Shown: piece after piece, positions 33,456-63,846 of the stretch
How the letters are laid out: every line of letters starts with the position of its first letter
Position numbering within the stretch: position 1 is the first letter of the stretch
Assembly (NCBI GenBank): GCA_035221665.1
Contig: CM069133.1
Span: forward strand, 84,444,001 to 84,508,000
Length of the DNA stretch: 64,000 nucleotides
Direction: 5' to 3'
DNA from: Okamejei kenojei
Lineage: Eukaryota
Made by a program: the position numbers and the translations under genes
Notes under the pieces: model-generated
Databases searched by the model: none
The model's input: the letters and a program-made list of their open reading frames with translations, nothing else
What the model was told of the DNA's origin: nothing

Positions 33456-33494
33456 TGTTGTTGCATTGTACACAATATTGGGAGTTTCTTCATT

Positions 33495-35120: not shown

Positions 35121-35133
35121 ATCCGAGCACGTC

Positions 35134-37085: not shown

Positions 37086-37094
37086 ACAGGGGCT

Positions 37095-37308
37095 CACTGA
37101 GTCCGCCCCGACCACCGATCACCGCACATTCGGGACAATTTACACACCAAGCCTATTAAACGACATACCTGTACCTCTTTGGAGTGTGGGAGAAAATCCA
37201 CTCGGTCACATGGAAAACATACAAACTCCGTACAGACAGCACCTGTGATCAGGATCAAACCCAAATCTCCAGCGCAGGCAGCAACTCTACTGCGGTGCCA
37301 CCGTGCCA
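37095..37308 (-). mobile_element. HE1-type V-SINE (internally deleted)
   Basis: ggcagcaactctactgcggtgccaccgtgcc head and V-domain. A second, older plus-strand V-SINE follows at ~37345-37510. Confidence 0.85.
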
Positions 37309-37530
37309 TCTAGTCGGTCCATTGAATCACCAAGAACAGAGATGTAATGCCTCACAGCTTCAGTGACCCAGGTTTGACCCTGACATCCGGTGCAGTCTGT
37401 CTGGAGTTTGTAATTTCTCCCTGTGATTGCACGGCTTTCCCTCTGGGTGCTCGGATTTCCTCCCACATCCCAAAAACACACAGGTTGATTAATGGGCCTC
37501 TGTAAATTGGCGACTGCATCTCCAAGTATG

Positions 37531-38441: not shown

Positions 38442-38658
38442 TCAGAAAGTCAAGGATCCAGTGGCAGACAGGGGTGCAGATTCCTAGGACCTGGAGTCTG
38501 GAGATGGGATTATTGTAGTTAAGATGACAAATAGGCGTCTAACCTACGAATCATTATTGTCCAGGTGTTTCAGTGATCGGTTTAGGGCCATGGAGGTGGT
38601 GCCTGCTGTGGTCCTGTTGCAACCCTAAGCAAACCACTGTGGATCAATGCTGGAGTTA

Positions 38659-39337
38659 AGGACCAGTCCCACTTAGGCGATTTTTTAGGCGATTTTTTAG
38701 GCGACTGCCGGCGACTGTCATAGTCATAGCAGGTCGCTGAAAAAGCGGCGACTGGAACCCCCCATGACAATGTCTACGACAATATCTATGAAAAGCTACA
38801 ACAACCTACCACTTATTCGACGTTAAGCCACAACAAGCTACCAACAACCAACGACCCATTAGGCCATCCACCTATGACCACACCTACGACAATCTACTAC
38901 CACACAGGCGACAACCTACTACAACTGAAGTCAATCTACAACACCCGCGACAAGCTACGAGAAGCTACGACCCTGTCAGCGACAACTAAAGACAACTGAA
39001 GACAATTCAGTCGCTGGTACCTGTCGCCGGTTGTCATAGGTTGATGTAGGTAGTCGCCAATGGAATTCACCAGTCAGCACCGGCGCCAACCTACGTCACC
39101 TGGCGACAACCTATGATAGCACCTACGTCAGGAGAAATCAAGCTACGCTCAGTGGCGCCAACGCACTGTCGCCAAAATTTTTTGAACATGTTGAAAATCC
39201 AGCGATGACCAGAAAGACGCTACGATTCTTTGGGCGACTGAGGAGACTATTCACAGCATTACAGGCGATACTCCGGCGACCGTGTGATGACAATCCTGTA
39301 ATCACCGAAATAAAATAGCCTAAGTGGTACAGGCCCT
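38659..39337. mobile_element. PIF/Harbinger-like MITE
   Basis: TIRs aggaccagtcccacttaggc and gcctaagtggtacaggccct, flanked by TTA/TGA. The interior is made of ~10-bp (aacctacgac)-like repeats. Confidence 0.82.
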
Positions 39338-42524: not shown

Positions 42525-43496
42525 AACAGAACTTAAATGGAGTGGGCAAATACCCCCTGTGTGGCAAGAGGTTTATTATAGAACCTTTGAAATGTCAGTT
42601 CATTTGACCATCGGCCATAAGGATTTGGTCGAGAGGGACACCCAGTGCCCTCGCTGCTGACGTTGATGCAGCCCTGGTGGAATGAGATTTTAAAATGTCA
42701 GTGTCCACTCCCGCACAAACCTGTTTCAGCCACCTTGAAATGGTCTGTACCGTCAACCTTCTTATGAGACTTTTTGTGACTGATGAATATCGTTAATTCG
42801 GAACCTCTGAGGCTCTTGGTGACCTTGGTGACCTTGTTATACTGTTGCAAGTGCGTAACTACACATAACCGAAGGTCTATGGAGTATGGCAAAAAAATAA
42901 GTTTAAGCCCTGACGTCCCTGGCCTGCACTGCTTAATTAAATCATAAACATAAAATGTTATGTTATTTACAGATGAAACCATCCTGTCCAGTCGCAGCTT
43001 CTGCAACATCTGGACGCTTTACGCTGAAACCAGTGCCATGAGCATGACCACTTTGAGAGTGAGTCTGGGCAAGGACAGTGATGTAGCTGGAGCCCATTGG
43101 CGAAGCAGTGTGAGAACCACGCTCACATCCCACAATCTCCATGTACCTGGGCCTGGGGAGATTACAGTTAAAAATATCCTTCATGAACCTGGATATTAAA
43201 GGGTGAGACCCAACAGAGTGTAGTCCCAATCCCTGTCACAAGTACGATGATAAGGCACTCCTGGCACTGTTGATGGTACCATAGCTCAGTCGCTCATCAA
43301 AGTATACTGCTGAAAGAAATTCCAACACATCCGGTATGCTTGCAGTGTGATATGATATGTTCGACTGCAAGCAGAACGCCTCCCATTTCTTGATATGAGA
43401 GATGTACTGTTTTTTAGTACTATCCCTCCAAGCCGCAGTTATCACATCCACTGTACGACCTGATAGTTCGAGTCCCAGGAACGGTCTCCTCAGAAT
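42525..43496 (-). pseudogene. DIRS A tyrosine recombinase, disrupted
   Basis: N-terminal WRDSTKKQY...YGTINSARSALS, HPLISRFMK, ISRWLK, catalytic box KSHSTRAASTS and, after a frameshift, WSNELTFQRFYNKP. Confidence 0.92.
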
Positions 43497-45954
43497 CTGC
43501 AAATCAATAGATTAATACGGTCATGTAGTGGATGGTTCTCCCCAGTCACAGGGTGAACCAGCAGATTACTGCATTTGGGGACAGCCATAAAAGGCTGTGT
43601 TATTAGGCTAAGAATGAGTGAGAACCATGGCTATGTAGGCCAGTCGGGAACTACCAAAATGCCTGAGGTGGAGTCCTGCTTGATCTTAAGCAAGCAGCGA
43701 CCGATGAGGCAAAAATGCGGGAAATGCACACAAAAACATTCCACCCCAGTGTAGCAAGAATGCATCTACCGCTACTGCCCCTGGGTCTGGTTCCCATGCA
43801 ACATACTTTGGTAACTGGTGATTTAGTCTGGATGCAAACAAATCAATGTCTGGTACTCCATACCGAACGACAATATCATTAAATATTTCATGATTCAACT
43901 TCCATTCTGTATTGTCATTGAATTTTCGTGACCTGGTGTCCGCCACCATGTTGAATCTACCTGGTAAGTAGATAGCTGAAACCCAGATGTTTCTTGTAAT
44001 ACACCTGTGCCAAATAAGGTTAGCCAATTTTTCACAGGATACTGACTTGACTCCACCCATTAACGTATGCTACTGTGATTAACGTATGCTTCTGCTGTAG
44101 TGTTGTCAATTTGAAGCTGAACATGCAAGTCATGCATACTAGTACAATATGCCTTTAGGCCATAGAGTGCTCCCAACAACTCTAAATAATTAATGCCATG
44201 TGATTGAAGAATTAATGCCTCATGCATATTCCATCTGCGATTGCAGCTAGAGATGATATCGGTGGCTCCCCATCCTAGAGCACTAACATCAGTTTGTAAA
44301 ATAACTGAAGGTCTCTCAATCAGAATTTTAATGGAGCAATGCCAAATATTCGCTATCCACCACTGTAACTCAGCAATGGCTTCAGCTGCTAACCCCTTGG
44401 GTCTATTGAAGTGACCTGCATGTATTTTGAGTGCCTGCTAATTTGCACGTTGTAAATTTCGATAATGTAAAGGCCCAAACTGTGCAGCTGGAAAGCAACC
44501 ACTAATTTGCCAATTATACTAGACACGTGCCGACTAGAAGGTTGCTGCTCATCAACGAGATTGTTACAAGCTTCTATTAATTCTGATCTCTTGTCCCTAG
44601 GCAGTCACAGACATGTGAGTTGAATTAATGGTGAATCCCAAATAATCAATAACTCTAGATGGTATCAATTTGGATTTAACTGGATGGATGAGAAACCCCA
44701 ACTTCTCAAACATGAGTTTGATAGCTGAAACCGATAATTCAGCTGATTTCCGAGTTTTTCCTATGATTAAGATATCATCCAAATAGGCCGTTACAATATG
44801 ATTCTGAGCACGGGGTAGGCCCAACACCGGTTTTAACAATTTTGTAAATAATCTAGGGGCCGAAGTTAAACCATTAGGCAATGCTTTAAACTGCCATAGT
44901 TGCCTCATCCAGCTAAACTTCAAATATCTCTGGTGATTGCAATGAATGGGTACTGAATAGTAGGCATCTTTAAGATCTATGCATGCCATATAGCATACTT
45001 TGGAAACCAGCAGTTTAGCAGTAACAAAAGATTCTTGCCATAGAGGGAGTACAGAGAAGGTTCACCAGACTGATTCCTTTGATGGCAGGACTTTCATAAG
45101 AAGAAAGACTGGATAGACTTGGCTTGTACTCGCTAGAATTTAGAAGATTGAGGGGGGATCTTATAGAAACTTACAAAATTCTTAAGGGATTGGACAGACT
45201 AGATGCAGGAAGATGGTTCCCGATGTTGGGAAGTCCAGAACAAGGGGTCACAGTTTAAGGATATGGGGGAAGTCTTTTAGGACCGAGATGAGAAAATCAT
45301 TTTTCACACAGAGAGTGAATCTGTGGAATTCTCTGCCACAGAAAGTAGTTGAGGCCAGTTCATTGGCTATATTTAAGAGGGAGTTAGATGTGGCCCTTGT
45401 GGCTAAAGGGATCAGGGGGTATGGAGAGAAGGCAGGTACAGAATACTGAGTTGGATGATCAGCCATGATCATATTGAATGGTGGTGCAGGCTTGAAGGGC
45501 CGAATGGCCTACTCCTGCACCTATTTTCTATATTTCTATGTTTTCATGTTTCCATTTTGAAATGTTTATACTGCACAAAGGACTTAAGTCGAGTTAAATT
45601 AAGGATGATTCGAAACCCACCATCCTTCTTTTGTTTAGGAAATATATTAGACACAAATTGGCGAGATTGATGAAACGACTTCTCAATTAACTCTTTTTTA
45701 GATAACGTTTCAATTTCAGTTTGTACATCCAAAGACTCTTGTTGTGAAAAAAACAATGTCCAGCTTGGTGTATGCCGTGTAGGTGGACGCAAATTGATAA
45801 GGAATTCTATTCGGAACCCTTGTATACTGTGCAGTATAAACAAATCTGATGTTATCCTACACCATTAATTGAAAAACGAGTGTAATCTCCCACCAACTTA
45901 TAACTGATCCATACATTATATGTTCTTAAAAGAACCAGACCCACCTACCTCCAT
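43490..45954 (-). pseudogene. DIRS A pol (RT, RNase H, adenine-methyltransferase-like domain), disrupted
   Basis: KKDGGFRIILNL, IDLKDAYYSVPI, LPNGLTSAPRLFTK, YLDD. RNase H QTDVSALGWGA and INYLELLG. DIDLFASRLN...DAF...AFPAF. A CR1 is inserted at 45031-45548. Confidence 0.93.
45031..45548 (+). mobile_element. CR1 3' end inserted in DIRS A RT
   Basis: ORF 45213-45449 (SRTRGHSLRI...) and a tttctatg tail. The DIRS frame (HFKMET|FVTAK) rejoins across it. Confidence 0.95.
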
Positions 45955-45959
45955 GGTTG

Positions 45960-47097
45960 CTGGTTTATATTTCTGCCCCCGAGTTTTGGAGGGTAAGAAT
46001 GTTGGAGTGCGCCAATTGCACATGTTTGGCAAGGGCCGGCTTCGTCCTTGGCCTGAACCAGCTTTCAGCGAACCATTTGTAGAGATGCTGCCACCGACCG
46101 TTTTCTCCTTGTCGTCCAGCTACCTGACCCATTTTGATAGGTCTTCACCAAACAGAAGATTCGGCGGTTGCACATTGCTAGACTTGCACAGTGCCGCAAA
46201 CTTGGGGTTCAGAGTAGGATGGATGGCACTCTTTCTGAGACAGTTTATTTCAAAATGTGCATTGCACATTAGGGCCAGAGCATTCTGCTGCACCTCAGAC
46301 AGGGGCCCCCCATCGACCGACCTAGCGAAAGCTGTAATGCCTGAAGCGAGCAGCTTTAGTATCTTCTGGAGCCTCACTTCCTGGGCTCTGATACCTACAC
46401 CCATGTGACCCCAGATAGCGTGGTTCACAGTTGGCACTTTGATCGAGGCACAATTGGCGGGCGTTTCGTTTTTTTTTTAAGTTTCTTCCATTGTGAGGTC
46501 TTGCAGCTGGTGTGAGGCCATGTAATTTAAAGTCATGGCCAGATCTTCATCCAGCGTTCCCCAGTTTCAGTCGGGAAAGCAAATTTTGATGCCATGCTTG
46601 GTACCTCCGGTTCGCGCCCTTCTTGCCTTGAGGTATGCTCACCGGCTATACCTCCGAACTCGGAGTCAGAACAAAACAGACGCCGAATGCTCTCCTCCTC
46701 CAGGAGGGAGACATTATACAGCCCTTCAGCAGATGCCGCTGCCACGGGCCCCCGAGGAGACACGCGGATATATAGCTCCTCTTGCTGGAGCCTATCGTGA
46801 TGGAGCATCCTCTCCATCAGATGCTCCATCCTGGACAAACGTCCGGAGACGCTATCCATTGTGGGAGGGGAACCCTCCTGGCCTGACTCGTCTGAGTAAA
46901 CGGCCCTTATTAGTGGCTTTCCATCCCACCGGAGTAGCCACGGTGCTTTCAATCGGCACCAAGTCTGAAGCCATTGGCCGTTCCGCCAGTGACTCTGAAG
47001 GAGAGATAGATGGTCGCCCGCTACCCGCGCTCCCGCGGTCTTCCATAGCTGCTCTCCCGGCGGCCCGCCTCGACCTCACCTTAGTCATTTTCTCCAT
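45960..47097 (-). pseudogene. DIRS A ORF1 (gag-like), frameshifted
   Basis: Pieces 46852-47097, 46533-46952 and 46120-46437 (PTVNHAIWGH...LRKSAIHPTLNPKFAALC...LLFGEDL) are homologous to copy B ORF1. Confidence 0.85.
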
Positions 47098-47455
47098 TAG
47101 TTCGAACTTGCTCCTGTAACAAGAATTACCGACCCAAGAAAACAACCTCAACTAAGTTTTAAACACTTATCTGAGGGTTTTTAAAACTTACCGCTGGTGG
47201 AGCTACATGCCTGCCAGCCCGTCGTTGCGCCATGCATCAGACGTAATGATGCGCATGCGACCTGGCAGGCATCTTCACGGAATCACTCACGTGACTCCGA
47301 AGTAAAATCCCATAGCATCAGCTGGATGGTATGAATATTAGATTAAATTATACATTCCTGTTCTCGACATAATCAGATGCACTGTACAAATATTCAGTGT
47401 TACATTCCTATCAAAGAGCACTGAAAATGCAGTAAAGGAAACATGATATGGATAT

Positions 47456-48257
47456 AGACACAAAAAACTGGAGGAACTCAGTGGGTCAGACAACATCACT
47501 GGAGAAAAGGAGAAGGAGACCGCAGGAGATGCAACACCTGTCCCTATACCTCCACCCTCGACTCTGACCAGGGACCCCGACAGTCCTTTCAGATTAGGGA
47601 GAGTTCCACTTGCACCTCCTCCAACCTCAGTTATTGCATCCATTGTTCAAAGTGTGGACTCTTATACATCAGCGCGACCAAACATAGACTGGGCGATCAT
47701 TTCGCTGAATACTTTCGCTCTGTCCGCCTGGGCCTACCTGATGTCCCGGTTGCCAAACACTTTAATTCCCCTTCCCATTCCCACACTGACCGTTCTGTCC
47801 TGAGCCTCCTCCATTGCAAGGTTGGAGGAACAGCATCCCAGATTTCGCTTGGGCAATTTACAACCCAATGGTATTAATATTGATTTCTCTAGCGTCAAGT
47901 AACCCTTGCAACTATCTCTCTCCATCCCTCCCCCATACAAGTTGTTGTACTAGCTTCAAAGTCATCTTGTTGAGTCTCATTGTCTGTAACTCATTTTTGC
48001 CTCGACCACAGTTAACAAAGGGCCTGTCTCCTTTATCATCGTTACCTTTTTGCATATCTTTCTTTAATTTGTTCTATATCTCTCTATAACACCGTCTTTG
48101 TCTCTTGTTTCCATTTTCTGTGACTCTCAGTCTGAAGAAAGGTCTTGACCTGAATCATTACCTATTCCTTTTCTACAGAGGTGCTGTCTGACCCGCTGTT
48201 CTCCAGTTTTTATGTCTATCTTCAGTTTAAACCAGCATCTACAGTTCCTTCATACAA
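47456..48257 (+). mobile_element. Penelope-like element (GIY-YIG endonuclease region) with inverted 5' pLTR piece and 13-bp TSD
   Basis: 47522-47900 translates RRCNTCPY...TCTSSNLSYCIHCSKCGLLYISATKHRLGDHFAE...PVAKHFNS...LEEQH..FRLGNLQPNGINIDFS. TSD atgatatggatat at 47443-47455 and 48258-48270. Confidence 0.93.
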
Positions 48258-48288
48258 ATGATATGGATATGTCTGACTTTATAAGATA

Positions 48289-49057
48289 CTAGACCAAGCG
48301 CGGACCCGTTGGGTCCCGTTCCCCCAATGCAATATTCCACCAAACTGCGCATGCGCGGCTGATGGGCCCGCACTTTCCGCTGATGGCAGAAATTAAGTTA
48401 AAGTTAATAAAGTGAATGGGGGATCCGTGGAGGCGTTTATAAAATAGAACAAAACTTACCCTTTGAGCCGTTGGGCCCCCGTTGTGAGGCCAGGCAAGTA
48501 CATGCAGAAAAAAATTGTCTATCTGAAAATTGGCAAAGACCTCACCTGCGCACGTGTGGATACCGGGCCTACTGTGCACGTGCGGGGAGACACCATCATT
48601 TTGTGTCACTGCCATGACACTGGCACAATATTCTATTACGATGCGGCTGACAAGCCTCTCGCAAATGTGCAGGCATGGCCGTCAAGTGGGGCGCTGTTTC
48701 AAGTTAATGAAAGTTTAAAATGTCAATAATTTGAAAGATAAAACATCAATCGGAACGAAATGGCTAATGCACATCAGAGGACAATGATGAGTAAGGTGGG
48801 CCTAAAATTGTAGCACTATCATGTACCATTTTNNNNNNNNNNNNNNNNNNNNNNNNNNNNNNNNNNNNNNNNNNNNNNNNNNNNNNNNNNNNNNNNNNNN
48901 NNNNNNNNNNNNNNNNNNNNNNNNNNNNNNNNNNNNNNNNNNNNNNNNNNNNNNNNNNNNNNNNNNNNNNNNNNNNNNNNNNNNNNNNNNNNNNNNNNNN
49001 NNNNNNNNNNNNNNNNNNNNNNNNNNNNNNNNNNNNNNNNNNNNNNNNNNNNNNNNN
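48289..49057 (-). mobile_element. Non-autonomous Helitron (5' end lies in N gap)
   Basis: a|CTAG at 48289 next to the hairpin ggaccc-gtt-gggtcc. Shares the block gagtaaggtgg...tagcactatcatgtacc with neighbouring copies. Confidence 0.8.
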
Positions 49058-49064
49058 TAACATA

Positions 49065-50423
49065 CTCAACTAAGTGGGACCCCTTGGCTCCCATTCTCTC
49101 ACAGGAGGCCTGGTCCCCCAACACAATATTCCACCTCTCCACCAATCCCAATATTTCACCACTTACGCATAGCCCCCAAATGCACAGGGTGGCTGAAGGG
49201 TTCCCATAGTGACGCCTCTGATCACGGCTTGTGGACTCACAGTTCACTCAGTCATGGCTTGTGGACTCACAGTTCACTCAGTTGCGGCTTGTGGATTCAC
49301 AGTTCATGCAGTCATGGCTTGTGGACTCACAGTTCACCCAGTCACGGCTTGTGGACTCACGGTTCACTCGCTCATGGCTTGTGGACTCACACTTCCCTCA
49401 CTCATGGGAGGGGGTATGTGGGGGAGGGGAGGTGTGTGGGTGTCTGTGTGGAGTGTGTGTTGGCGAGGGTGTGTGTGTGCGGGAGGGGATGAGTGTGGGG
49501 GGAGGGGGTGTGTGGGGGAGGGGGATGTGTGGGGGAGGCGGGTGTGTGGGTGAGGGGGGTGTTGGTTGGGGGGGAGTGTGTGGGGGGAGGGGGGGGTGTA
49601 GGGGAGGGGGGTTTAGGGGAGGGGGGTGTTGGGGAGGGGAGGTGTAGTGGAGGGTGGTGTAGGGGAGGGTGGTGTAGGGGAGGGGGGTTTAGGGAGGGGG
49701 CGTGTAGGGGAGGCGGGTGTAATGGAGGGGAGGTTGTAGGGGAGGGGAGGGTGTAGGGGAGGGCAGGGGGGTGTAGGGGAGGGAAGGGGGGTTGTAGGGG
49801 AGGTGCGGATGTAGGGGAGGGGTTGTGAAGGGGTGGTGGGATGTGGGAGGGGGGTGTGTGGGCTCACCAGTTCCCGGCCCTGCCTCCAACTGCACTCACC
49901 GGCTGCAGGACCCGGTTCCGGACCCACTCATCTGCTCCCATCTGCTCCCATCACCAGCTCACAGCCCCCTGCTGCGGTACACAGCCCGCCCCCACCCGCA
50001 GAAAACACCCCACCCCGCCAGCAGAACACAGCCAGCCGCCGCCCGTGGAACACAGCCCACACTCCCCTGCTTCAGCTTTAAACTCGGCGGCTTCTGGACG
50101 GGTGGCTTCTGGACTGGCGGCTCCTGGACGGGCGGCTTCTGGGCATGTTCATAGACTCAGCCCTGACTCCGGGGTTTTATTCTTCGTTACCTTCATGGTG
50201 ATGACAGGCGAGAAGACCAATCTGCTGATCTCACGATTTGTTAAACCTTCATAACTTTTGTAATCCTCCACCAATCGGAACAATACTTGGTGGCTTGGAG
50301 CAGAGGGGAACGGCGAGTAAGGTGGTGAAAAAATCCTTGCGATATATGGTACTGTTTTTGTGCAAATTTAAATACAAAACAGACCGGAAGTGGTAAAAAT
50401 GAGAGTTTTAGTAATAGTATAGA
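49065..50423 (-). mobile_element. Non-autonomous Helitron with 30-bp minisatellite, G-rich tract and 15-bp repeats
   Basis: Minus strand begins a|TCTATACTATTACTAAAACTCTC at 50423, with a mutated 3' end at 49065. 30-bp array 49222-49405. (GGGGA/GTAGGGGA)-rich tract 49410-49860. (ggcggcttctggacg) array 50086-50143. Confidence 0.8.
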
Positions 50424-50427
50424 TTAA

Positions 50428-52270
50428 CTAGACCAAGTTGGACTGTAGGGCCCCATTCCCACAAAGCAATATACCACCACTCATCCATTCCCCCTACGTA
50501 ACCCATTCCCCAACGCAATATTACACCACTCACCCATGGCCCGCAACTGCGCAGGCACAGCTCATTTCCCCTCATCCCCCAACACTCTCTCCCCTTCCCC
50601 TTCACCCTCCCTCTTCTCTCCCTCTCCTCCTCCCCTCCTCCACTCCCTCCCTCTATCCCTCTCCTTTTCCTTACCTTCAGTCACCCCCTCCCTCTGCCTG
50701 CAGTCTGTCCACCCTTTTTTATTTTTATTTTTAGTCCTGTTAGATCAAAATGTTTGTTGTCAGTCTTATTTTATGTGGTGGGTGGGGGGAGGGGAAGGAG
50801 GAAACTTTATTCTGCAGTTTTCCTCCGAATCGCATCTTTGTCCTCTCCGTGCAGCCAACCCTTGGACTGGAGCAGCGTTTCCTGCCGGGACCGGCCAGGA
50901 CTACAGCTTCGCCGGTGGCATGGCGCTGGGCCACCATCATGGAGCGGGCGATGCCTTACCGGGCCGCCGTGCGGTAAGCTCTGGAGTGCTGTGACCGCTG
51001 ACTCCCAACATCGCGGAGCTGTGGCTGAGGGCTTCCAACCACGGGCGGCGCTGAATTTAAAACACCACGGAGCCTGGGATCCGAGATCACCAGAGTTGGA
51101 GCTCCAAACAGTGCGGCCTGAGGACTTTGGGTGTCACAGTCTCCGGGGAGGGAGCGGCCGCTGAGGACTTTTCCATGCCACTGAGGACTTTTCACCCGAC
51201 GCCGGTGTTCTATCTTCCCGGCAGGTGGGCCTATAACAACGGGCCGCCATTGCGGCAACTGGCTGCGGAGGCCTCAAATAGACCCCGACCTCGGGTGGTC
51301 TAGGAGGAGGAGGAGGAGACTGGACTTTTTGGTGCCTTCCATCACAGTGGAAAGTGTTGATTCTGCTGTGGGTGCATTTTCGTGTTGAATCCTATGGTGT
51401 ATTGTGCTTTTTTTTCTTCTTTTTTATTTTATATGGATGTATGGTAATCTAATTTTTTTTCTGTAAAGCACTTTGGCTTCAACATGATTTGATTTAAAAG
51501 TGCAATATAAATAAAAATTACTTACTTACCTATCTCTACCCTATCGCACTCCCCCACTAAACACAATGTTTAAATAACATTTATTCTCCTCCTTTCCCCC
51601 ACTCCATCCCTCTCCTTGCAACAATGTAACAATCCTCTTGTTGCACTGGGTGGAACACTGTTGATTGGCAGCTTATGTAAATGAGTTCCCATTGTGATGT
51701 CATTGTCAGGTGGAGCACTGTTCTTGACAGCTTATGTAAATGAGATACCATTGTGACATCATAGCTGCGAACTGCCAGAATCTGCCAGCAACTGCCACAG
51801 CACTTATTCTCAAAGTAGGTAAGTTTTGTAAAGTTATAAATATCAATAACTTGTGAAATATAACATCGATCTGCACAAAACTTGACACAAACCACCACAG
51901 GACAATTGTAAGTAAGGTGGTGCAAAGATGTTAGCGCTATCATGTACCGTNNNNNNNNNNNNNNNNNNNNNNNNNNNNNNNNNNNNNNNNNNNNNNNNNN
52001 NNNNNNNNNNNNNNNNNNNNNNNNNNNNNNNNNNNNNNNNNNNNNNNNNNNNNNNNNNNNNNNNNNNNNNNNNNNNNNNNNNNNNNNNNNNNNNNNNNNN
52101 NNNNNNNNNNNNNNNNNNNNNNNNNNNNNNNNNNNNNNNNNNNNNNNNNNNNNNNNNNNNNNNNNNNNNNNNNNNNNNNNNNNNNNNNNNNNNNNNNNNN
52201 NNNNNNNNNNNNNNNNNNNNNNNNNNNNNNNNNNNNNNNNNNNNNNNNNNNNNNNNNNNNNNNNNATAGA
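50428..52270 (-). mobile_element. Non-autonomous Helitron containing a nested retroposon
   Basis: a|CTAGACCAAG at 50428, shared ccccaacgcaatatt block, shared 5' block before the gap, and ataga|t at 52266-52271. Confidence 0.75.
50735..51531 (+). mobile_element. GC-rich SINE-like / LINE 3' UTR insertion with L2-type tail
   Basis: Ends tgtaaagcactttgg...aaaagtgcaatataaataaaaa(ttac)n, typical of L2-mobilised elements. The 5' boundary is approximate. Confidence 0.55.
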
Positions 52271-52934
52271 TAGAAGATAAGAGACTTGGTATGGTCATTG
52301 CCAACACTTGTGGTAATAATGATAATTCACTATGCTTGTGTGTCCCTCCACTTAATGGTGGTAGGCCATTTAAGATATCTGCGCTTGCATTCTGTTCTTT
52401 CTCAGATTGATTGAAGTTTATTTCACTTTGTCTTCGCAAGAGTGTTTGCCGCCCACCCTTTATTTCAGGACATGTGGAGAGTGAATTACATCAGCAGATG
52501 AATATCAGAACAAGACTGGGCAGAGAATGCTCCCTGTTATTTGCTTTCTCCACATGACTTACTATAATCTGCATGCATAGAAACTTATCCAGAAAGTTTA
52601 CTGCTCAATATTTGGAATATATTGACACATTTTACACTCTCTCTTATCTGGCAGTCTAAATTCTGCACGTTTACTGCTCAGGAAGTTTTAGATGACAGCT
52701 GTTCCTTCCAGCTACCTGCAAGGAAGACCTCTTTGATGCCTTACCAGTCTGAAAAGGACACGAAAATGTGTGTTACATATCATAAAAAGAAGATATTTTC
52801 AAAATATTTTAATAAATGATTGGAGTGAAATATTCTCAGTTATGTTCAGCTTCAATATTGAAGACCATGTTTGAAAATTAGCTTTTTGCTCATACAGGCT
52901 CACTATGGCAAGGTCTGTGCTTTTTAATACACAT

Positions 52935-53390
52935 AGTGCTGGAGTAACTCAATGGGTCAGGCGGCATCTCTAGAGAACATGAATAAGTGATGTTTCTCAC
53001 CTGGATCCTTCTTCAGTCTAATTGTTGTGGTGGGGGAAGAAAGCTGGAAGAGAGGAGGGGCAGGACAAAGCTTAGCGAGTGATGGGTAGATAAAGGCGAA
53101 GGCGTGTTTGGTAGGCAGATGATTTGACAAAAGGCTGAGATGAAAAGAAAAAATATATGAGATAAGGATTCCTTCTGAAGAAAGGTCTCGACCCAGAAAC
53201 ATCACCAACTCCTTTTCTCCAGAAATGTTGTCTAACCCACTGAGTTGCTCCAGATTTTTCTGTCTGTCTTCTGTTTAAACTAGCATCTGCAGTATTTTCC
53301 TACACTTCTCTAGGGATGTTGCCTGAACCACTGAGCTACTCCATCACTGTGTCTTTTTTTTGTTAACCAGCATCTGCAGTTCCTTGCATC
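52935..53390. mobile_element. Penelope-like pLTR cluster (inverted pLTR, direct pLTR, extra partial pLTR)
   Basis: 52935-53165 on the minus strand. 53175-53305 on the plus strand (ctgaagaaaggtctcgacccagaaacatc). 53305-53390 is a partial repeat. Confidence 0.82.
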
Positions 53391-53419
53391 TGTTTTGTCA
53401 GTTCAGATACGAAGTTGGT

Positions 53420-54430
53420 TCCAATCATATAGGTGGAAGGAAGTACTTTGTTAGTCTTGAGGACTATGTGTCACAGCTGCATGATACACCCTTTGGTGTA
53501 TCATGTAGCTCGCTGCCTTGGCCCATTACTCTTTTCCTTATATATGCTGCCGCTAGGAGGAGTTATCAAAAAGCATAATGTAAATTTTCAAAGTTATGCC
53601 GATGACACTCAGTTATACCTCTCTGTCGAACCCACTGATGCAAATGCCTTCTTTGACTTCCTGCCTATTTTCCATTAAAAAATGGATGAATGCTAACTTT
53701 CTTACACTCAACAATGACAAGACAGAAATATTATTACTTGGATCAAAACCCAAGAGAGAGATGTTACTCGGTAAACTGGGAAATTTGACTGCCTACGTCA
53801 AACAAGAAGTCACAAGCCTGGGGGTAAAAGTTGACAATGATCTTAATTTAAAATCTCATATAAATAAGGTAACAAAAGTGTGCTTTCTATCACCTCATAA
53901 ATATTGCTAAAGTATGGTCTTTCTTAACTAAACATGACTAAAAAACTCATACATGCTTTCATATCGAGCGGACTTGATTACTGTAATGCCTTATTTATTG
54001 GTCTGCCTTCAAAATCCACCAACAAGTTGCACCTCATTCAAAATGCCGCAGCCTGGCTCTTAACAAACAAAAAGAAAAGACAACATATCACCCAAGTATT
54101 ATACTCCCTTCATTGGCTCCCTGTGAGATCCAGGATTGATTATAAAGTCCTCCTACTTGTCTATAAAGCCCTAAATAGCTTAGGAGCAGCATATTTTACA
54201 GAGTCCCTCCTTCTCTATGTCCCTACTCGAGCGCTCAGGTCTTCCGATGCCGGCCAGTTAGTCTCTCAATGCTGCAGCAATAAGAACATTGGTAAAGCAG
54301 CCTTTTTGAATTACGCCTCCAAGCTGTGGAATACCCTACCCAGGGCTATGAGAGACGCCCACTCAGTTGACATTTTTAAGCAGCAGCTAAAAACTTATCT
54401 TTTCAATCAAGCTTTTAACTGACTTTAATT
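53420..54430 (+). mobile_element. L2-clade LINE, 5'-truncated RT and C-terminal region
   Basis: [89 protein letters not shown]. Confidence 0.93.
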
Positions 54431-54591
54431 CTTCTGATGACATTGTAAAAATTACCTTTATTCTCTGGTATTTATCTCAGCATACACTTCAGCAGATTTT
54501 GTGCTCATATAGTATATGGGAATCTGTATTTGACCTCAGTGTTTTTGTTTTCTGTCCTTTTACAATCTCAATTTTTTGTTTTTATTTTATA

Positions 54592-55839
54592 TCTATATGA
54601 TTAAAAGTCTCATCTTGACCACTTCCTGTCTGCGCTGTATATTGATTTTAGAAAAAACGCTACCATATATCACTATGATTTTTGGCCATCTTACTCACAG
54701 TCCTCCTCTGCTGAGCAGGCCCCAAGGATTTTTCCCATTGATGAAAAATACAAAAAGTTAAGAGTGTTTAAAAAACCTTGAGATCCTCTCGCCTGTCAAT
54801 CACCTCGATGAAGGTTATGTCCCTTCGGGGGGGTGGGGGGTGGGGCCAGGACTATAAAACCCCGGATGCCGGGACGTTGCAAGATCACGAGGGAGAAGCC
54901 ACGACTCTCATTCTAAGCTGTGAATCAACTGAACTGTGAGTCTGCAATGTACTTGCAATAAATGATTTGTTAGCCCTTAATGACAATGCCATGAGTTGTT
55001 TGGCCTGCTGCCCTGCCTGCGCTTGAAACTGCAATGCTTTATTAGGTCTGACTGTATTTGGAAGGAATAAATGCTTTATTAGGTCCGACTGTGTTTAGAA
55101 GGAATAAATGCTTTATTAGGTCCGACTGTTCAAAAGTCCCGCTCATTTCGTGACTTCCGCTAAAAGGACAGGTCACGCTGATTGCGTAACTTTACGGTGC
55201 GTGCAGAGGTCGTGCTGATTGCATAGTTTCTGGTAAGTCACGCTGATTGCGGAAGTGCCACTGACTGCGGAAGCCCCAAAGTGGAGAGGCCGCGCTCAGC
55301 TATGTGAGTATTCAAGAAAGTTTACTGCCATATATATGGTGTGTGAGTCAGTGATTGTGTGTGTATGTGTTTGTGAGTGTTTGTGTGTGTGAATGTGTGA
55401 ATGTGTGTGAGTGTGTGCGTGTGTGATTGTGTGAGTGTCTGTGNNNNNNNNNNNNNNNNNNNNNNNNNNNNNNNNNNNNNNNNNNNNNNNNNNNNNNNNN
55501 NNNNNNNNNNNNNNNNNNNNNNNNNNNNNNNNNNNNNNNNNNNNNNNNNNNNNNNNNNNNNNNNNNNNNNNNNNNNNNNNNNNNNNNNNNNNNNNNNNNN
55601 NNGTGCATGTGAGTGGTCTAATTGAATGAGTTGCTAGCCCAAGAATCCATTCAGCCCACAATGTCCATGCTAGCCATCTGGAAACCAGTCCCTTTGGCCC
55701 ACAACACCATGCTAGCGTGCCAGAAAGCCCCCCTCCACACTGGCCAGCAACATTGGAATTAGTGGAGAGGTGGAATATTGCGTTGGGGGACCAGCCCTCA
55801 CATGTGAAGATAGGACCCAACGAGTCCCACTTGGTCAAG
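54592..55839 (+). mobile_element. Non-autonomous Helitron
   Basis: a|TCTATATGATTAAAAGTCTCATCTTGACC start. End is ggacccaacgagtcc hairpin plus CAAG|t (mutated CTAG). 37-bp repeats at ~55032-55130 and a TG microsatellite beside the gap. Confidence 0.85.
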
Positions 55840-55877
55840 TTTTTTAATAAATCTGTGACTTTTATATTAACTGTCTA

Positions 55878-58362
55878 CATAGAAACATAGAAACATAGAA
55901 AATAGGTGCAGGAGTAAGCCATTCGGCCCTTCGAGCCTGCACCGCCATTCAATATAATCATGGCTGATCATCCAGCTCAGTATCCTGTACCTGCCGTCTC
56001 TCCATACCCCCAGATCCCTTTAGCCACAAAGGCCAAATCTAACTCCCTCTTAAATATAGCCAATGAACTTGCCTCAACTACTTTCTGTGGCAGAGAATTC
56101 CACAGATTAACCACAGATTCACACAGAGAAATCTTTTTTTCTCATCTCAGTCCTAAAAGACTTCCCCCATATCCTTAAACTGTGATCCCTTGTTCCAGAC
56201 TTCCCCAACATCAGGAACAATCTCTTGCATCTAGCCTGTCCAACCCCTTAAGAATTTTATAAGTTTCTATAAGATCCCCCCTCAATCTTCTAAATTCCTG
56301 CGAGTACAAGCCGAGTCTATCCAGTCTTTCTTCATAAGAAATTACTGCCATCCCAGGAATCAGTCTGGTGAACCTTCTCTGTACTCCCTCTATGACAAGA
56401 ATGTTTTTCCTCAGATTAGGAGACCAAAACTGTGCGCAATACTCTAGGTGTAGTCTCACCAAGGCCCTGTACAACTGCAGTAGAACCTCCCTGCTCCTAT
56501 ACTCAAACCCTTTTGCTATGAATGCTAACATACCATTCGCTTTCTTCTCTGCCTGCTGCACCTGCATGCTTACTTTCAATGACTGGTGTACCATGGCACC
56601 CAGATCTCGTTGCATCTCAGCTTTTCCGAATCGGCCGCCTTTCAGATAGTAGTCTACTTTCCTATTCTTGCCACTAAAGTGGATAACCTCACATTTATCC
56701 ACATTATACTGCATCTGCCATGCATTTGCCCACACACCTAACCTATCCAAGTCACCTTGCAGCCTCCTAGCATCCTCCTCACAGCTAACACTGCCCCCCA
56801 GCTTTGTGTCATCCACAAACTTGGAGATGTTGCATTCAATTCCCTCGTTCAAATCATTAATGTATATTGTAAATAGCTGTGGTCCAAGCACTTTGCCTTG
56901 CAGTACCCCACTAGTCACTGCCTGCCCTTCTGAAAAGGACCCGTTTATTCCTACTCTTTGCTTCCTGTCTGCCAGCCAGTTCCCTATCCAAATCAATACT
57001 GAACCCCCAATACCGTGTGCTTTAAGTTTGAATACTAATCTCTTATGTGGGACCATGTTGAAAGCCTTCTGAAAGTCCAGCTATAACACATCCACTGGTT
57101 CTCCCTTATCCACTTTACTAGTTGCATCCTCGAAAAATTCTATAAGATTCGTCAGACATGATTTACCTTTTATAAATCCATGCTGACTTTGTCCAAGAAT
57201 TTCACCACTTTCCCAATGTGCTGCTATCCCATCTTTAATAACTGACTCTAGTATTTTCCCCACTACCGATGTTAGACTAACTGGTCTGTAATTCCCTGTT
57301 TTCTCTCTCCCTCCCTTTTTAAAAAGTGGAGTTACATTAGCTACCCTCAAATCCTCAGGAACTATTCCAGAATCTAAAGAGTTTTGAAAAATTATCACTA
57401 ATGCAGCCACTATTTCTGGGGCTACTTCCTTAAGCACTCTGGGATGCAGCCGATCTGGCCCGGGGGATTTATCGGCCTTTAATCCATTCAATTTACCTAA
57501 CACCACTTCCCAACTAACCTGGATTTCACTCAGTTCCTCCATCTCATTTGACCCCTGGTCCCCTGCTATTTCCGGCAGATTATTTATGTCTTCCTTAGTG
57601 AAGACAGAACCAAAGTAGTTATTCCATTGGTCTGCCAAGTCCTTGATCCCCATGATCAATTCGCCTGTTTCTGACTGCAAGGGGCCTACATTTGTTTTAA
57701 CTAATCTTTTTCTCTTCACATATTTAAAAAAGCTTTTGTAGTCAGTTTTTATGCTCCCTGCCAGTTTTCTTTCATAATCTATTTTCCCTTTCCTAATTAA
57801 GCCCTTTGTCCTCCTCTGCTGGACTCCCAGTCCTCTGGTAGGCTGCTTTTTCTGGCTAATTTCTATGCTTCATCTTTAGTTTTGATACTATCCCTGATTT
57901 CCCTTGTTATCCACGGATGCGCTACCTTCCCTGATTTATTCTTTTGCCAAACTGGGATGAACAATTGTTGTAGTTCATCCATGCGATCTTTAAATGCCTT
58001 CCATTGCGTATCCACTGTCAACCCTTTAAGAATCAATTGCCAGCCTATCTTGGTCAATTCACGTCTCATACCTTCAAAGTTACCTTTGTTTAAGTTCAGA
58101 ACCCTTGTTTCTGACTTAATTATGTCACTCTCCATCCTAATGAAGAACTCAATCATATTATGGTCACTCTTGCCCAAGGGGCCACGCACAACAAGACTGC
58201 TAACTAACCCTTCCTCATTACTCAATACCCAGTCTAGAATAGCCTGCTCTCTTGTTGGTTCCTCTACATGTTGGATAAGAAATCTATCCTGCATACATTC
58301 CAAGAAATCATCTTCCTCAGCACCCCTGCCAATTTGATTCACCCATTCTATATGTAGATTGA
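55878..58362 (-). mobile_element. Young CR1 LINE ORF2 (endonuclease end plus RT), 5'-truncated
   Basis: ORFs 57863-58342, 57081-57719 (KSPGPD, NYRPVSLTS) and 56211-57056 (FVDDTKLGG). (catagaaa)n tail. Confidence 0.96.
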
Positions 58363-59299
58363 ATCTATGTCCTTACTGTTTTAAATTGTATTTTTGTTTA
58401 GACCTGTGTTTTTGTGAAAACCTGTGTTTTGGGGCTGCATTCAATTGTATGAAAAGNNNNNNNNNNNNNNNNNNNNNNNNNNNNNNNNNNNNNNNNNNNN
58501 NNNNNNNNNNNNNNNNNNNNNNNNNNNNNNNNNNNNNNNNNNNNNNNNNNNNNNNNNNNNNNNNNNNNNNNNNNNNNNNNNNNNNNNNNNNNNNNNNNNN
58601 NNNNNNNNNNNNNNNNNNNNNGAACCTCAAAGAACACACCATTCATTTATTTCCAGTTGTGGATTAAATCTATTATCCTTTTGTGTTCTAAGAAGACCAA
58701 TCTAAATTTTTCCACATAATGGAACTCCAGTCATAGTACTGGTAAATCCTCTTATATCACTCTCTGAGGATTGGTATCCTGGATGAGAATCACAGCATAA
58801 AATAGTAAGATTAAATGAGAACTTACCAGTTCGAAATTTGATCTGTATTTTATGAGGAGTTACGATGAGGGATTATGTGAAGACCCCATGCAGCACGCAT
58901 GCACGACATTCTTCAAAGCAGCGGTGTGGATTCACAGAAAAAACACAACGATTGAAATACATATAGTAAAGAAAAAATAAGAACTTAATTACCAGTTGAT
59001 CTGTATAATAGAGGGTGGGAGTGGAGGGCACGTAATCCCTCATCGTAACTCCTCATAAAATACAGATCAAACTTCGAACTGGTAAGTTCTCATTTAATCT
59101 TACTATTTTATTTCGGAGTCATGTGTGTGACTACGTGAAAACTTCAAAGCTCTGTGATTCCGAACCGTGTACCAGCTCATGCTTCACTCACTGTCTGAAG
59201 ACCTTTGAGGGAGGAAGTATGTTATCACAATCAACAATAACCTGTTTGTGAAGAAAAAAGGTTTATTAATAGCAACAAAAAACAGAGAGCTCCCCCGGG

Positions 59300-60303
59300 C
59301 CTAACCACCTGCTTGAGCCACCTTGAAATGGTTTGGCTCGTCACCTAACCATGGGGCTTCTTGTGGCTTATCCACAAGGCTTTTTCTATCCCTCTTAAAT
59401 TGTATGTTGTGTCTATGTAAATGGAGAGATGGGTCTTGGCACACAGCCGTGGGTCAGATGAATATGCCCGGAACTCCATACTGGAGGCGTGGTTCCTGGT
59501 CTAGTTTGTTGACCAGACCCTGAATATGGAATGTGATACGCTGTCCAGCCTCAGAAGGTGGAGGGACTGTACCCTTTGTGCTGACACTAGTGCCATGAGC
59601 ATGACGTATGTCGCTTGGGTACCAGACCCTGAGGCAGCAGCAGTTGATGCATTCACGCTGCATTGGGGGAAAATGTTCTTCTATGCTTTTCCCCCCTTCT
59701 GCCTCATCAGTCGGGTATTACGCAAGATTCAATTGGATTCCGCTTCAGGAATCTTGATAATACCTGACTGGCGTACACAGCTATGGTTCCCAGTGGCCCT
59801 CGACATGGCTGTCGGAACACCGTTGGAATTCCCCAGCAGTTCAGAATTACTAATCCACCCAGTGTCAGGCATTAGTCAGGGTAAGTTGTTCCAGCGTGAG
59901 TGACCTGGGTGCTGGCCATCCCCAAAGGTACGTCAGCACAAGCTGACATCCCAGATCTGAGTGTACCTTGGTCTGGGGGAATTAGTGTTAAAAATACCCT
60001 TCCTGAGTTTGACCACAATTGGATGGGACCCCAAAGCCTGTTGTCCTGCTGCTGGAACCAAATAAGCTGACAATGCACTCCTGGCTGTATTGATGGCGCT
60101 GTAGCCGAGTCCATCCCATTGTAATCCAACCAGGAACTCCACAACACTGGTAGCTGTTGCTGTTGAGTAGATAGTTCCTGTTTTGGTGCAATACCACTCC
60201 TATTTCCTTATGTTGGTCAGGTATTGTCTCCTGGTGGACTCCCAGTGGGATGCGGTCATCATGTTGATGGTGTCCTCAGACCCAGTAGATGTCTTTTTAG
60301 AAT
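59300..60303 (-). pseudogene. DIRS B tyrosine recombinase, C-terminal catalytic part deleted
   Basis: GLGYSAINTARSALS, GSHPIVVK, PRPRYTQIWDV, MLMALVSAQRVQSL, ISRWLKQ. The HxxR/Y box is missing. An inverted insertion lies at 59606-59878. Confidence 0.88.
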
Positions 60304-62179
60304 CTGCAAGCCAGGAGATTGACTCTCTCATGGCACAGGTGACTAATGTCTGACACTGGGTGGATTAGTAATTCTGGACTGCTGAGGAATTCCAACGGTG
60401 TTCCGACAGCCAAGTCGAGGGCCACTGGGAACCATAGCTGTGTAGGCCAGTCAGCTATTATCAAGATTCCTGAAGCGGAATCCAATTGAATCTTGCGTCA
60501 TACCCGACTGATGAGGCAGAAGGGGGGGAAAAGCATAGAAGAACATTTTCCCCCAATGCAGCGTGAATGCATCAACTGCTGCTGCCTCAGGGTCTGGTAC
60601 CCAAGCGACATACATTGGTACCTGGTGATTCAGACTAGATGCAAATAGATCGATATCTGGTGTGCCATATTGCTTTGTAATTTCAGCAAATACTTTGGGA
60701 TTTAACATCCATTCGATGTTATCGTTAAATTTGCGTGACCTGGTGTCTGCCACTGTATTTTGCTTACCTGGTAGGTAAGTTGCTGATAACCAATTATGTC
60801 TTTTGACACACCATTACCAGATTAGGTTGACCAAATTGTCACATCATCCATGTGGTTGATATAAGCCACCACCGTGGTATTATCTAATTGCAACTGGACA
60901 TGTGCGTGATGCGTATTAGATGAATATGCTTTTAAACCATAAAACGCACCCAACATTTCTAAGTAGTTAATACCCCGTGTCTGTAGGCAAGATGATTCAA
61001 AATTTGTCCATCTGCCCCCTGTGCTGGATTGCATGTTAGTTGCTCCCCAGCCCAAAGCACTGGCATCCATTTGAATGGTTAATACTGGGTTGGTGATTAT
61101 TATGGGACTGGAGCTAAGCCTAATGTTCCTTGTCCACCATTGTAACTCTGGAATGGATTCAGCAGTTAAATTCATAACTCGGTCAAAATGACCTGAGTTT
61201 TTCTTTAGCGCGTGCACTATTGTACAGCTGGAAAGGCTGCTACCATTTTCCCAATGACACTAGCTACCTGCCGTATGATTGACTGATGATTAACGATTAG
61301 TTCGTTGCATGATTGTGCTAACTCTGATGCTTTCCCCTTCGGCGGAGTTACAGTCATGTGAATAGTGTCAATCGTAAATCCAAGATAGTCCATGGTTGTG
61401 GACGGTGTCAAATTGGATTTATCTGGATGTGTGACAAACCCCAAAGTTTCAAACAAACGTTTGGGGGGCTGCTGCTGCTGAAATGGCTGTCTCCAAGGTT
61501 TTCCCTACTATTAAAATGTCGTCTAAATACGCCATGACTATATGCTTTTGTTTCCTCAATAATGCCAAGGCAGGTTTTAAGATTTTTGTGAACAACCTTG
61601 GAGCTGAGGTTAGCCCATTTGGTAAGGCTTTAGATTTCCATAGCTGTTTCATCCAGCTAAACTTTAGGTATTTACAATGCTCCTTGTGTATGGGTACTGA
61701 CTAGTAGGCATCTTTTAAATCAATGCTTGCCAGAAAGTACCCTCTAGAATCAATTGTCTGGCTGTTTCAAAAGTTTCCATCTTGAAATGTATATACTTAA
61801 CAGACTTGTTTAAAGAAGTTAAGTCAATGATGATGCGACATCCACCATCTTTTTTAGTTTTATTGAAAATATTAGACACAAATTCCAAAGGTTCATGTTT
61901 TGTTCTTTCAATGACATCTTTTGCTAGTAGCCTCATCAGTTCAGCTTGACCCTCTTGTTTCTCTTTGCCTGAGAGGGTGAATACCCTTTGGGGTATATGC
62001 TGAACTGGCGGCATGTTTTCATGAACAAAGTCAATTTTATAGCCATGAATGCTGCTGAGTATATATTTGTCATTAGTGATAGACTCCCATGCATCCAAAA
62101 ACAAGTGCAATCTCCCCCCTGTTAGTATAGAGCCCCTACTGCTCATATGCTGAGAGGAACCAGACCCACCTACCTCCAT
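60297..62179 (-). pseudogene. DIRS B pol (RT, RNase H, methyltransferase-like), disrupted
   Basis: MEVGGSGS start, KKDGGCRIIIDL, YLDD, QMDASALGWGA, INYLEML, DIDLFAS, YAFPP, ending NLLACRF*. Confidence 0.93.
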
Positions 62180-62181
62180 GG

Positions 62182-63442
62182 TTACTGGTGCTTCTTCTGC
62201 CTCTTCGCTGGACGATGAGGTGTCTGTTGGGCTGTAGAGGGCTGCTGTTGATGTTGATGTTGATGTTGCTGTTGATGTTGGGGGTGGTGCATTTTCCATG
62301 GGGTCCGCTCTGGGCCCTGGCCTGAAAAAGGCTTACGGGGAATGGTTGCGGACCCCGAGCTTTCACCAGTCCCATATGGTAGTCGGCGACTGGTGGACGC
62401 CGTGGGGTACTGCCGCCTGGGTTTGTTAGGTCTGCTCGGTCCCAAACCTGCCCTCATGAGACCAAAGGTCTTGGACTCTTTCTCCAGGTCTTTCACCTTT
62501 TTTGGAAGGTCCTTTCCAAAGAGCAGAATTGGAGGTTCTGAACCCGGTCTGCAAAGTCCTGCAAAGTCCTGCAAACTTAGGATTGAGGGCAGGCTTGATG
62601 ATTTCCTTCCGTAAATTGTTAATCTCGAATTGAGTGGTGCACAGCAGAGCTAATGTATCTTGCCGATTTGTGGTAATGTCCACACCATCTATGGACCGAG
62701 CATATGAAGTTATTCCTGCTGTCAGGAGTTTTAGGATTTTCCGGTGCTTCAACTCCAGGTTCCTGATATTCTGTCCCAAATGTCCCCAAATTTGGCTGTT
62801 TACAGCTGGTACATTCAGTGATGTACAATTTTCTGTGGCTGAATATAATTCAAGAGCCTCATTGGCCACCCGTTCTTGTAGGGGTTTTGAGGACAGGTGG
62901 TCAATGCTGGCTGCAAGTTTCAGCTCTAAAGGCCGACCCGCTCGTGGAATGGCCACGTAGCAGTTGACCACACCCAGCAGCTCTTCCTGATCCTGTACAC
63001 CCTGCGTACTCCGGACATCTTCAGCCAGCGACCCCTCTTCCTGACCAGCCCAGACCTGGTTGCCAATGCTGCCTTCAATAGAAGGTGAAGCAATGGCCAG
63101 TGCCGTAAAGGGCACTGCGGGAGTGCCTAGGCTGCCTTGGCGAGTCTGCTGCTGCTCTCTCAGCAGATCTCGCTGGAGCAATTGCTCCATAAGCCGTTCC
63201 ATTTGGCTTAGGCGGCTGCCTTTGCCGCTCTCGTGCGGTGAGGCATCTTCATCCAAATCGTCGGATACTACTGCCCGGTTCTGGCTGCAGGTACCTCCAG
63301 CCCGCTGCTCAGGCTGCACTAGCGGTGCTGGGCTCGGCTCGGTAGTCAATCCTGCCGCCTCTCGCCCACCCTCCAAAGAACGCTCCTCAACGGGAGACGA
63401 ATGGGGGCGAGCTACAGATTTCTTTCCTCTGGTCTTGCTCAT
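62182..63442 (-). pseudogene. DIRS B ORF1 (gag-like), one frameshift
   Basis: MSKTRGKK... ORF to ~62560. A 10-bp tandem duplication (gcaaagtcct) shifts the frame. The C-terminus LLFGKDLPKK...HQQQHQHQHQQQ...KKHQ* is in ORF 62182-62574. Confidence 0.88.
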
Positions 63443-63846
63443 TCTTTCTGGAACACAAAGCAGACCACAGAGAAAATACACACGACCACAGTAAAACACT
63501 TACCTGTCGGCCCGACTTTCAAATTGTAGCGGGAGCGCCTTGAACTCCCGTTCGTCGCGGGTGCACTGCATGAACGCTAATGTCATGCATGCGTGCTGGA
63601 CGGGGTCTTCATGTAGTCACTCAAGTGACTCCGAAATAAAATTAGATCCAGTGCTTCATTCATTGTGGAATGTGCAAAATGGCATGTCATAACCAGATGT
63701 GCATCCAGAATTATAATCATTTGAGAACATAAAATTCACAAGGGAGAAACACCAAAATTCTCTTCTTACATGAACAACATTAAAGAAAATACAATGAAAG
63801 ATTTATTACCAAAATAGAAGATAAATCAGGAAAGATTTTTCAATTG

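Follow-up and report, generated by a model that had tools for sequence, protein, structure and literature searches.

Predicted splicing out of pol in DIRS1-like retrotransposons of Okamejei kenojei and a possible Gag-recombinase fusion

A 64,000-nucleotide stretch of the Okamejei kenojei genome (GenBank assembly GCA_035221665.1, contig CM069133.1, positions 84,444,001 to 84,508,000 of the forward strand; hereafter the window) contains two decayed DIRS1-like retrotransposons, A and B, which are ordinary members of a family group with thousands of copies. We propose that the tyrosine recombinase (YR) of these elements is made from RNA out of which pol has been spliced, between a donor at the start of pol and an acceptor at its end, and that the ribosome arrives at the YR frame from gag, so that the product would be a Gag-YR fusion; we put the probability of this reading at about 0.55. 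The splice itself, wherever translation begins, is likely to be real. The expression route and the non-autonomous lineages apparently derived from the spliced RNA are what is new here; the elements themselves are ordinary DIRS1-like.

DIRS1-like elements have overlapping open reading frames (ORFs) for gag, pol (reverse transcriptase, RT; RNase H; methyltransferase) and YR, and splicing is not mentioned in the available portions of two descriptions of them (PMC3266345, PMC9210276). For translation of the third ORF, the sole proposal in the parts of the literature at hand is ribosomal frameshifting, which was put forward for the YR of Ngaro (Poulter and Butler 2015, quoted in PMC13003380).

Splice sites in copies A and B

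A preliminary description of the window had pointed to an identical 27-mer at the start of pol in two clearly diverged elements and had predicted a phase-0 splice from there to the end of pol, which would hand the pol start codon to an ATG-less YR. The 27-mer is indeed shared (45958-45932 and 62183-62157, minus strand) by copies that are only about 65% alike over pol, and the donor ATGGAG/GTAGGT and the acceptor TTGCAG/ATTCT are found in both at the expected places:

45932..45958, minus strand: copy A, 27-nt block, ACC-ATG-GAG and predicted splice donor GTAGGT, cut between 45949 and 45948
43497..45948, minus strand: copy A, predicted intron of 2452 nt, almost the whole of pol (RT, RNase H, methyltransferase-like)
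43490..43510, minus strand: copy A, predicted acceptor TTGCAG/ATT, cut between 43497 and 43496, overlapping the pol end C-R-F-stop
62157..62184, minus strand: copy B, block with gag stop TAA, CC, ATG GAG and predicted donor GTAGGT, cut between 62174 and 62173
60304..62173, minus strand: copy B, predicted intron (pol) of 1870 nt, acceptor cut between 60304 and 60303

The predicted intron is about 1.9 kb long in uninterrupted copies. Past the acceptor, copy A continues in the YR frame and reads ILRRPFLGLELSGRTVDVITAAWRDSTKKQY, and copy B reads ILKRHLL before it leaves the YR frame through a short deletion relative to L022, a copy of its family with all three frames unbroken. The phase-0 removal of pol is backed by conservation at synonymous sites and by two intron-less lineages, both described below, and is unseen in RNA.

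Conservation of the donor and acceptor

Our sample consisted of 40 copies found by motif, 40 found by a donor-blind RT search and 16 full-length relatives of two derivative lineages, which together with A and B formed 44 clusters at 88% identity; the donor could be placed in 96 copies and the acceptor in 78, and unbiased donor statistics were taken from 25 clusters picked regardless of the donor. The genome holds 4544 exact matches to the 23-mer core of the pol-start motif and none to its control, so that the motif is not due to chance. With third positions freed there are 5118 matches, and among 100 of them listed the Val codon is GTA in 100, the next Gly codon GGT in 99 and the Glu codon GAG in 98, while the following Gly codon varied in 6 of the same 100.

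Throughout the 25 unbiased clusters, the donor has AG at -2/-1, GT at +1/+2 and G at +5, and A at +3 in 24. The Val codon of the donor thus ends in A in 24/25, as compared to a median top-letter share of 0.61 at background four-fold degenerate sites of pol; outside the donor block, just 2 of 42 such sites reach 0.9. Position +4 is G or A (with one C), and the encoded residue shifts between Gly, Ser and Arg while +5 stays G. At the acceptor, where the pol residue is Arg or Ser, AG is present in 35/35 clusters, preceded by C at -3 in 34, and the base that follows varies freely (A in 21, G in 12, T and C in one each). The conservation that the preliminary description proposed to test is found, with the donor held at synonymous positions and the acceptor AG in every cluster, and the spliceosomal GT-AG consensus of both sites appears to be under selection at the nucleotide level. 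Conservation also extends past the donor consensus, into GGGTCTGG (window positions 45932-45942 and 62157-62167), where third positions reach 0.94-0.97 across clusters; this block may be an intronic splicing element.

Going up from the acceptor, the YR frame meets a stop after 5-8 codons in most copies, and a slippery heptamer is absent from nearly all of these overlaps. YR codons 4-12 precede any internal ATG and keep their residues while changing at synonymous positions (Pro, for instance, in 31/32 clusters over three codons; eight copies with indels were omitted from these counts). Constraint on these codons below a closed frame indicates that translation covers the YR N-terminus and that ribosomes must enter it from upstream. 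The claim that YR lacks an N-terminal ATG is right for copy A and wrong for the family of copy B, which has ATG-ATG at YR codons 18-19 (60262-60257); across families, an ATG occurs within the first 25 YR codons in 16/35 clusters and in 19/35 there is none. These counts bear on an alternative in which a donor in the leader is joined directly to the YR acceptor and translation of YR begins at an internal ATG (codon 15-19). The strong leader donor that this requires is there, as AG/GTRAG 60-170 nt inside 61/75 left ends, and so is the internal ATG in some clusters; but the majority of clusters lack that ATG, codons 4-12, which precede it, evolve under protein constraint, and the joins seen in the genome use the pol-start donor, all of which makes this route very improbable.

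Genomic copies without the intron

A degenerate pattern for the spliced junction has 13 exact matches in the genome and its control has none; when the join was allowed to vary by 0-14 nt, the exact join alone was found, 13/13, with no near-miss. Ten loci fetched belong to one lineage, P, whose members are mostly 92-95% alike (one copy about 89-91%) and have the layout gag, U-rich heptamer, ATGGAG/GTTCTG, YR; a second junction pattern with a free codon recovered lineage P alone. With one mismatch allowed, 12 loci were fetched of a lineage Q, which has the join AAGGAG/GTTTTA and at least 12 dispersed copies. Among the 16 new one-mismatch matches, L099, L103 and L104 proved to be unrelated DNA and L106 an unspliced element. 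Joined copies make up 4 among 100 listed of 188 matches in P and 13/53 in Q.

Full-length parents exist for both lineages, with GAG/GTA(A/G)G, full pol and TGCAG/ at the acceptor. Aligned with their parents, the derivatives match as far as the donor and again from the acceptor onward, i.e., exactly the predicted intron is missing, and their right-hand flanks differ among copies, which argues that the intron-less copies have transposed. Those of P read ...AFFRTGP...VTME/VLKRP, open from the heptamer; in those of Q, gag passes in frame into YR (gag...VTPVTKE/VLRRPYLG), forming a naturally occurring Gag-YR ORF that lacks a Met at the join.

The same copies could in principle have arisen without splicing, as microhomology deletions made by RT template switching, with YR expressed by frameshifting from the end of pol. 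YR does lie in the -1 frame of pol in L022, 4-nt homology is present at both joins, other microhomology deletions and a chimera exist, and the RNA run discussed below shows no junction (donor depth 0-8). Random pairs with 4-nt homology at least 500 nt apart, however, number about 29,000-39,000 per element, 46-67 of them in frame within 100 nt of both sites, and both lineages hit the predicted pair; moreover, this account leaves the overlap of pol and YR with no slippery site in nearly all copies, and the synonymous conservation of the donor without explanation. We regard it as improbable, and from two exact joins amid some 30,000 deletion choices we infer that the intron-less copies are reverse-transcribed spliced RNA.

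From gag to YR: two layouts

In the scheme that we favour, pol of DIRS1-like elements would be spliced from the donor at its start to the acceptor at its end, to give a YR mRNA. In one layout (II; copy A type and family Q), gag is in frame with pol; translation would yield Gag-Pol from unspliced RNA and Gag-YR from spliced RNA. In the other (I; copy B type and family P), gag is closed by a stop codon of its own, and pol, which lies in the -1 frame, is open from a heptamer, TTTTTTA, that precedes the donor by about 130 nt. Here ribosomes that shift by -1 would make Gag-Pol or Gag-YR, and those that do not shift would make free Gag. Both termini are preserved in the spliced RNA, and its occasional reverse transcription in trans would found non-autonomous gag-YR lineages.

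Layout I is intact in L022, which has gag of 428 codons, pol of 690 codons in the -1 frame, opening at the heptamer, and YR of 332 codons in the -1 frame of pol. The heptamer occurs in 7/9 copies of B's family, and its expected phase with the donor is found in 23/32 decayed copies. It matches the HIV-1 gag-pol frameshift heptamer UUUUUUA; its letters also make a good 3' splice site. A gag TAA placed two bases ahead of the ATG position is kept in 32/32 copies that have the heptamer about 130 nt from the donor, and in 31/64 copies that lack it. The unbroken continuation of the gag motif into the pol frame divides the copies in the same way: where the heptamer is missing it is seen in 22 copies as against 5 that do not show it, and where the heptamer is present, in 3 as against 8 (P 0.003 by copy); gag-frame offsets taken from tblastn ends or motifs are noisy in decayed copies, so unbroken runs were used, and 38/96 copies were informative. 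In three relatives (L016, L065, L069) no break occurs between the gag motif and the donor. In five copies (L003, L024, L033, L036, L015) the heptamer is shortened by two bases to CTTTCAG, about 120 nt before the donor; at the slippery site itself this form would bring gag into the pol frame, and the frames in these decayed copies are inconsistent.

That the ATG two codons before the donor is the start of pol is less clear than the preliminary description had it: the pol frame of copy A is open for at least 50 codons upstream, with gag-like sequence there, and that of copy B is open past the U-rich heptamer and holds another in-frame ATG (62299). The ATG occurs in just 8/17 RT-anchored clusters, with some of the losses being single-copy decay. 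Multi-copy families with ACT, AAG or TCT/CCC/CCT in its place keep the donor intact, and family Q has AAG in all 53 matches of a search that permitted ATG or AAG. The ATG is, judging by these copies, dispensable. Of the earlier proposal of alternative splicing from one ATG, then, the splice stands, and the handing of the ATG from RT to YR fails as a general rule.

A version of that proposal keeps the same splice and has both RT and YR begin at this ATG, reached either by re-initiation after the gag stop (TAA-CC-ATG) or through splicing of the leader donor to the TTTTTTAG site. The ATG has the context ACCATGG, with the TAA two bases ahead in all heptamer copies, it is present in 74/96 copies (a biased set), and TTTTTTAG/G is itself a good 3' splice site for which a strong leader donor exists. 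Its absence from several multi-copy families, Q above all, speaks against the shared start, as do the position of the ATG inside the gag-pol frame in layout II and L072, where the stretch from the heptamer to the donor contains no ATG in the pol frame; genomic copies joined from leader to heptamer had 0 matches, with a narrow pattern that makes this a weak negative. We therefore consider a shared ATG rather unlikely and favour the Gag-led product, which we hold to be somewhat the better than even choice; the two may coexist in ATG-bearing families, where the ATG that follows the gag stop as TAA-CC-ATG may be a start.

RNA, homologs and points of difficulty

The sole raw RNA run mapped, X11, is poly(A) RNA of which about 6% was read, most reads being less than 95% alike. 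Of 59 joints mapped on L022, 15 were listed, all from run X5, and on L070 a single joint was found, between the termini. Two other runs, X1 and X2, are probably DNA. X11 reads pile up (depth up to 135) at L022:3139-3639 and L070:3331-3777, mostly with the first mate on the plus strand and with one shared loose end; the pile is probably a host transcript with an antisense DIRS fragment.

The nearest named homologues come from a skate. Two sea-urchin (Diadema) NCBI models read gag...AFFRP...VTALPKE/VLKLPF-YR, in which the -1-frame peptide and the junction are those described above; in models from Ruditapes and Amphiura, gag-like parts are joined to the YR frame and RT is absent. A metagenome scan yielded two loci, neither of which spans a clean pol-YR boundary. 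Tentatively, pol may act as an alternative intron in DIRS1-like elements from cartilaginous fish to sea urchins, with a Gag-YR recombinase as the product, families switching between -1 frameshifting and in-frame gag-pol, and spliced RNA founding mobile gag-YR elements.

Several observations weigh against the Gag-YR interpretation. Arg columns made up entirely of AGN codons are present elsewhere in pol, and since there are several of them, the acceptor test is weak on its own. No donor-acceptor junction was found in X11, where donor depth is 1-8 on L022 and 0 on L070 and thus uninformative, and the sea-urchin models are predictions whose underlying DNA and RNA were not in the comparison. As to the intron-less copies, AG/GT homology (2+2 nt) is present at the joins of both P and Q, both still carry the leader intron, Q is a rearranged chimera with a 1.8-kb insert, each lineage represents one event, so that its copies cannot be counted as independent, and the families of A and B, of the ATT type, have yielded no such copies despite heavy sampling. 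As to translation, layout II offers no obvious route to free Gag; no shared hairpin follows the heptamer, with z below -2 in 2/20 clusters (pseudoknots being outside the scope of this test); and the ATG in ACCATGG context is the commonest state, in 34/44 clusters of a selection-biased set, which a pure fusion model leaves unexplained.

Comparison with known systems

Elements A and B resemble published DIRS1-like elements, as far as the accessible parts of Piednoel 2011 (PMC3266345) and Gazolla 2022 (PMC9210276) describe them, in having separate frames, inverted repeats and 3' complementary regions, NTT termini, a length of about 5 kb and a short pol/YR overlap; the intron-like behavior of pol that we propose, the two gag-pol layouts and the amplified gag-YR derivatives are not part of those accounts. 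With Ngaro, as quoted in part in PMC13003380, they share a YR whose start overlaps the end of pol in the -1 frame, and for which frameshifting in the overlap is proposed there; Ngaro differs in its split direct repeats, whereas the elements here have inverted repeats, overlaps mostly without a slippery site, and a conserved acceptor. In plant Ty1/Copia, alternative splicing sets the protein ratio and the splice makes Gag alone (Oberlin 2017, PMC5580714, in the portion available); here, in contrast, the splice would remove pol and bring in the integrating enzyme. No description of a pol-removing DIRS splice was found in the portions at hand of these papers or of PMC7192593, PMC2685390, PMC4157794, PMC9940879, PMC3537659, PMC6681497 and bioRxiv 2021.04.08.439009; the main reviews, Repbase reports and supplements lie outside this coverage and could hold one.

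If the proposed route is true, tethering of the recombinase to Gag would account for its entry into the particle of an element that has no evident protease. A downstream ORF is reached by splicing over pol also in the case of retroviral and gypsy env, and foamy viruses have a spliced pol. Compared to these and to HIV-1, the ORF spliced in here is a recombinase, probably fused to Gag, with no protease evident, and the spliced RNA keeps both ends and appears to have been copied back into the genome. For annotation, the same route would mean that YR ORFs called from an internal ATG are truncated, and that RT-less gag-YR elements are splice products and not random deletions. The analysis gives exact coordinates for the predicted splice and what would be a germline fossil record of the spliced RNA.

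The two elements in the window

The remaining parts of the two elements are as follows:

42047..47308, minus strand: copy A, DIRS1-like, decayed, of the family type without the U6A heptamer; termini located, inverted repeats, RVT_1 and Phage_int_SAM matches
47271-47303/42316-42348: copy A, inverted terminal repeat pair, plus 3' complementary region
45955..47097, minus strand: copy A, gag region, broken; its 3' end is in the pol frame as far as the ATG
45035..45547, plus strand: 3' fragment of LINE type (presumably CR1-like), about 513 nt, inserted in copy A pol, 87-90% alike to 30483-30999, 37924-38442 and 55877-56407
42520..43496, minus strand: copy A, YR region, broken, end approximate; Phage_int_SAM_4, E 1.3e-5
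47114..47170, minus strand: copy A, candidate 57-nt leader intron before gag, donor G mutated to A; a second donor-like site starts at 47191
58801..63642, minus strand: copy B, DIRS1-like, decayed, of the family type with the U6A heptamer and a separate gag stop
62323..62329, minus strand: copy B, U-rich heptamer TTTTTCA, candidate -1 frameshift site or 3' splice site
59300..60303, minus strand: copy B, YR region, frameshifted, split by an inverted duplication, end approximate
63448..63503, minus strand: copy B, candidate 56-nt leader intron before the gag ATG (63442)

Both copies are dead, with stops in pol, the LINE-type insert in A and the inverted duplication in the YR of B (59606-59878, a 96-100% copy of 60340-60613). 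The RVT_1 match has E 1.6e-19 in copy A and 7e-20 in L022, and the unbroken YR of L022 matches PF02899 (1e-7), PF00589 (4.6e-6, just under the cut-off), and phage integrase PHROGs, with phrog_1 at 2e-12; the motifs HSTRAAS, AGW and RFY are visible, so that a tyrosine recombinase ORF stands in place of a DDE integrase. After RT there are QTDAS..GWG and DLFAS..N/FYAFPPF motifs, which we take to be RNase H and methyltransferase-like; no Pfam or PHROG match was obtained there in L022, and PF17917 and PF05869 are annotated on homologous proteins. The gag-like first ORF, of 411 amino acids, has no Pfam match and is 23-33% alike to N-terminal parts of nine invertebrate YR-bearing proteins. Inverted terminal repeats and internal complementary regions account for two inverted pairs in A (I1, I2) and three in B (I3-I5), and the element ends, ATT...ATT, fit the NTT termini of DIRS1-like retrotransposons; long direct terminal repeats, as in the split direct repeats of Ngaro and PAT, were found in neither A nor B.

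The candidate leader intron is 47-75 nt long (mostly 51-61), has a near-perfect donor, lies just before the gag ATG and is retained in all readable copies; genomic copies joined across it had 0 matches, again with a narrow and thus weak pattern. In many families a second GGTAAGT is found about 20 nt upstream of the leader donor.

The 1.8-kb insert of lineage Q lies near the 5' end (L127:3528-5305; L091:202-306, L098:215-318, L101:248-352) and contains part of an element from another DIRS family, which breaks off just beyond that family's own donor, as well as a full-length copy of U6 snRNA (Rfam 60-63 bits), both carried along in transposition. In family P, the 5' region of gag is lengthened by tandem repeats of about 85 nt (L107-L109:0-1100, L111-L118), and L129 and L130 have an internal duplication. 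Around elements A and B, decayed RT/endonuclease fragments of LINE type occur at window positions 11859-19200, 30483-31161, 53584-54422 and 55877-58372; within the first of these, 13543-13995 resembles what we take to be an SGNH esterase ORF1.

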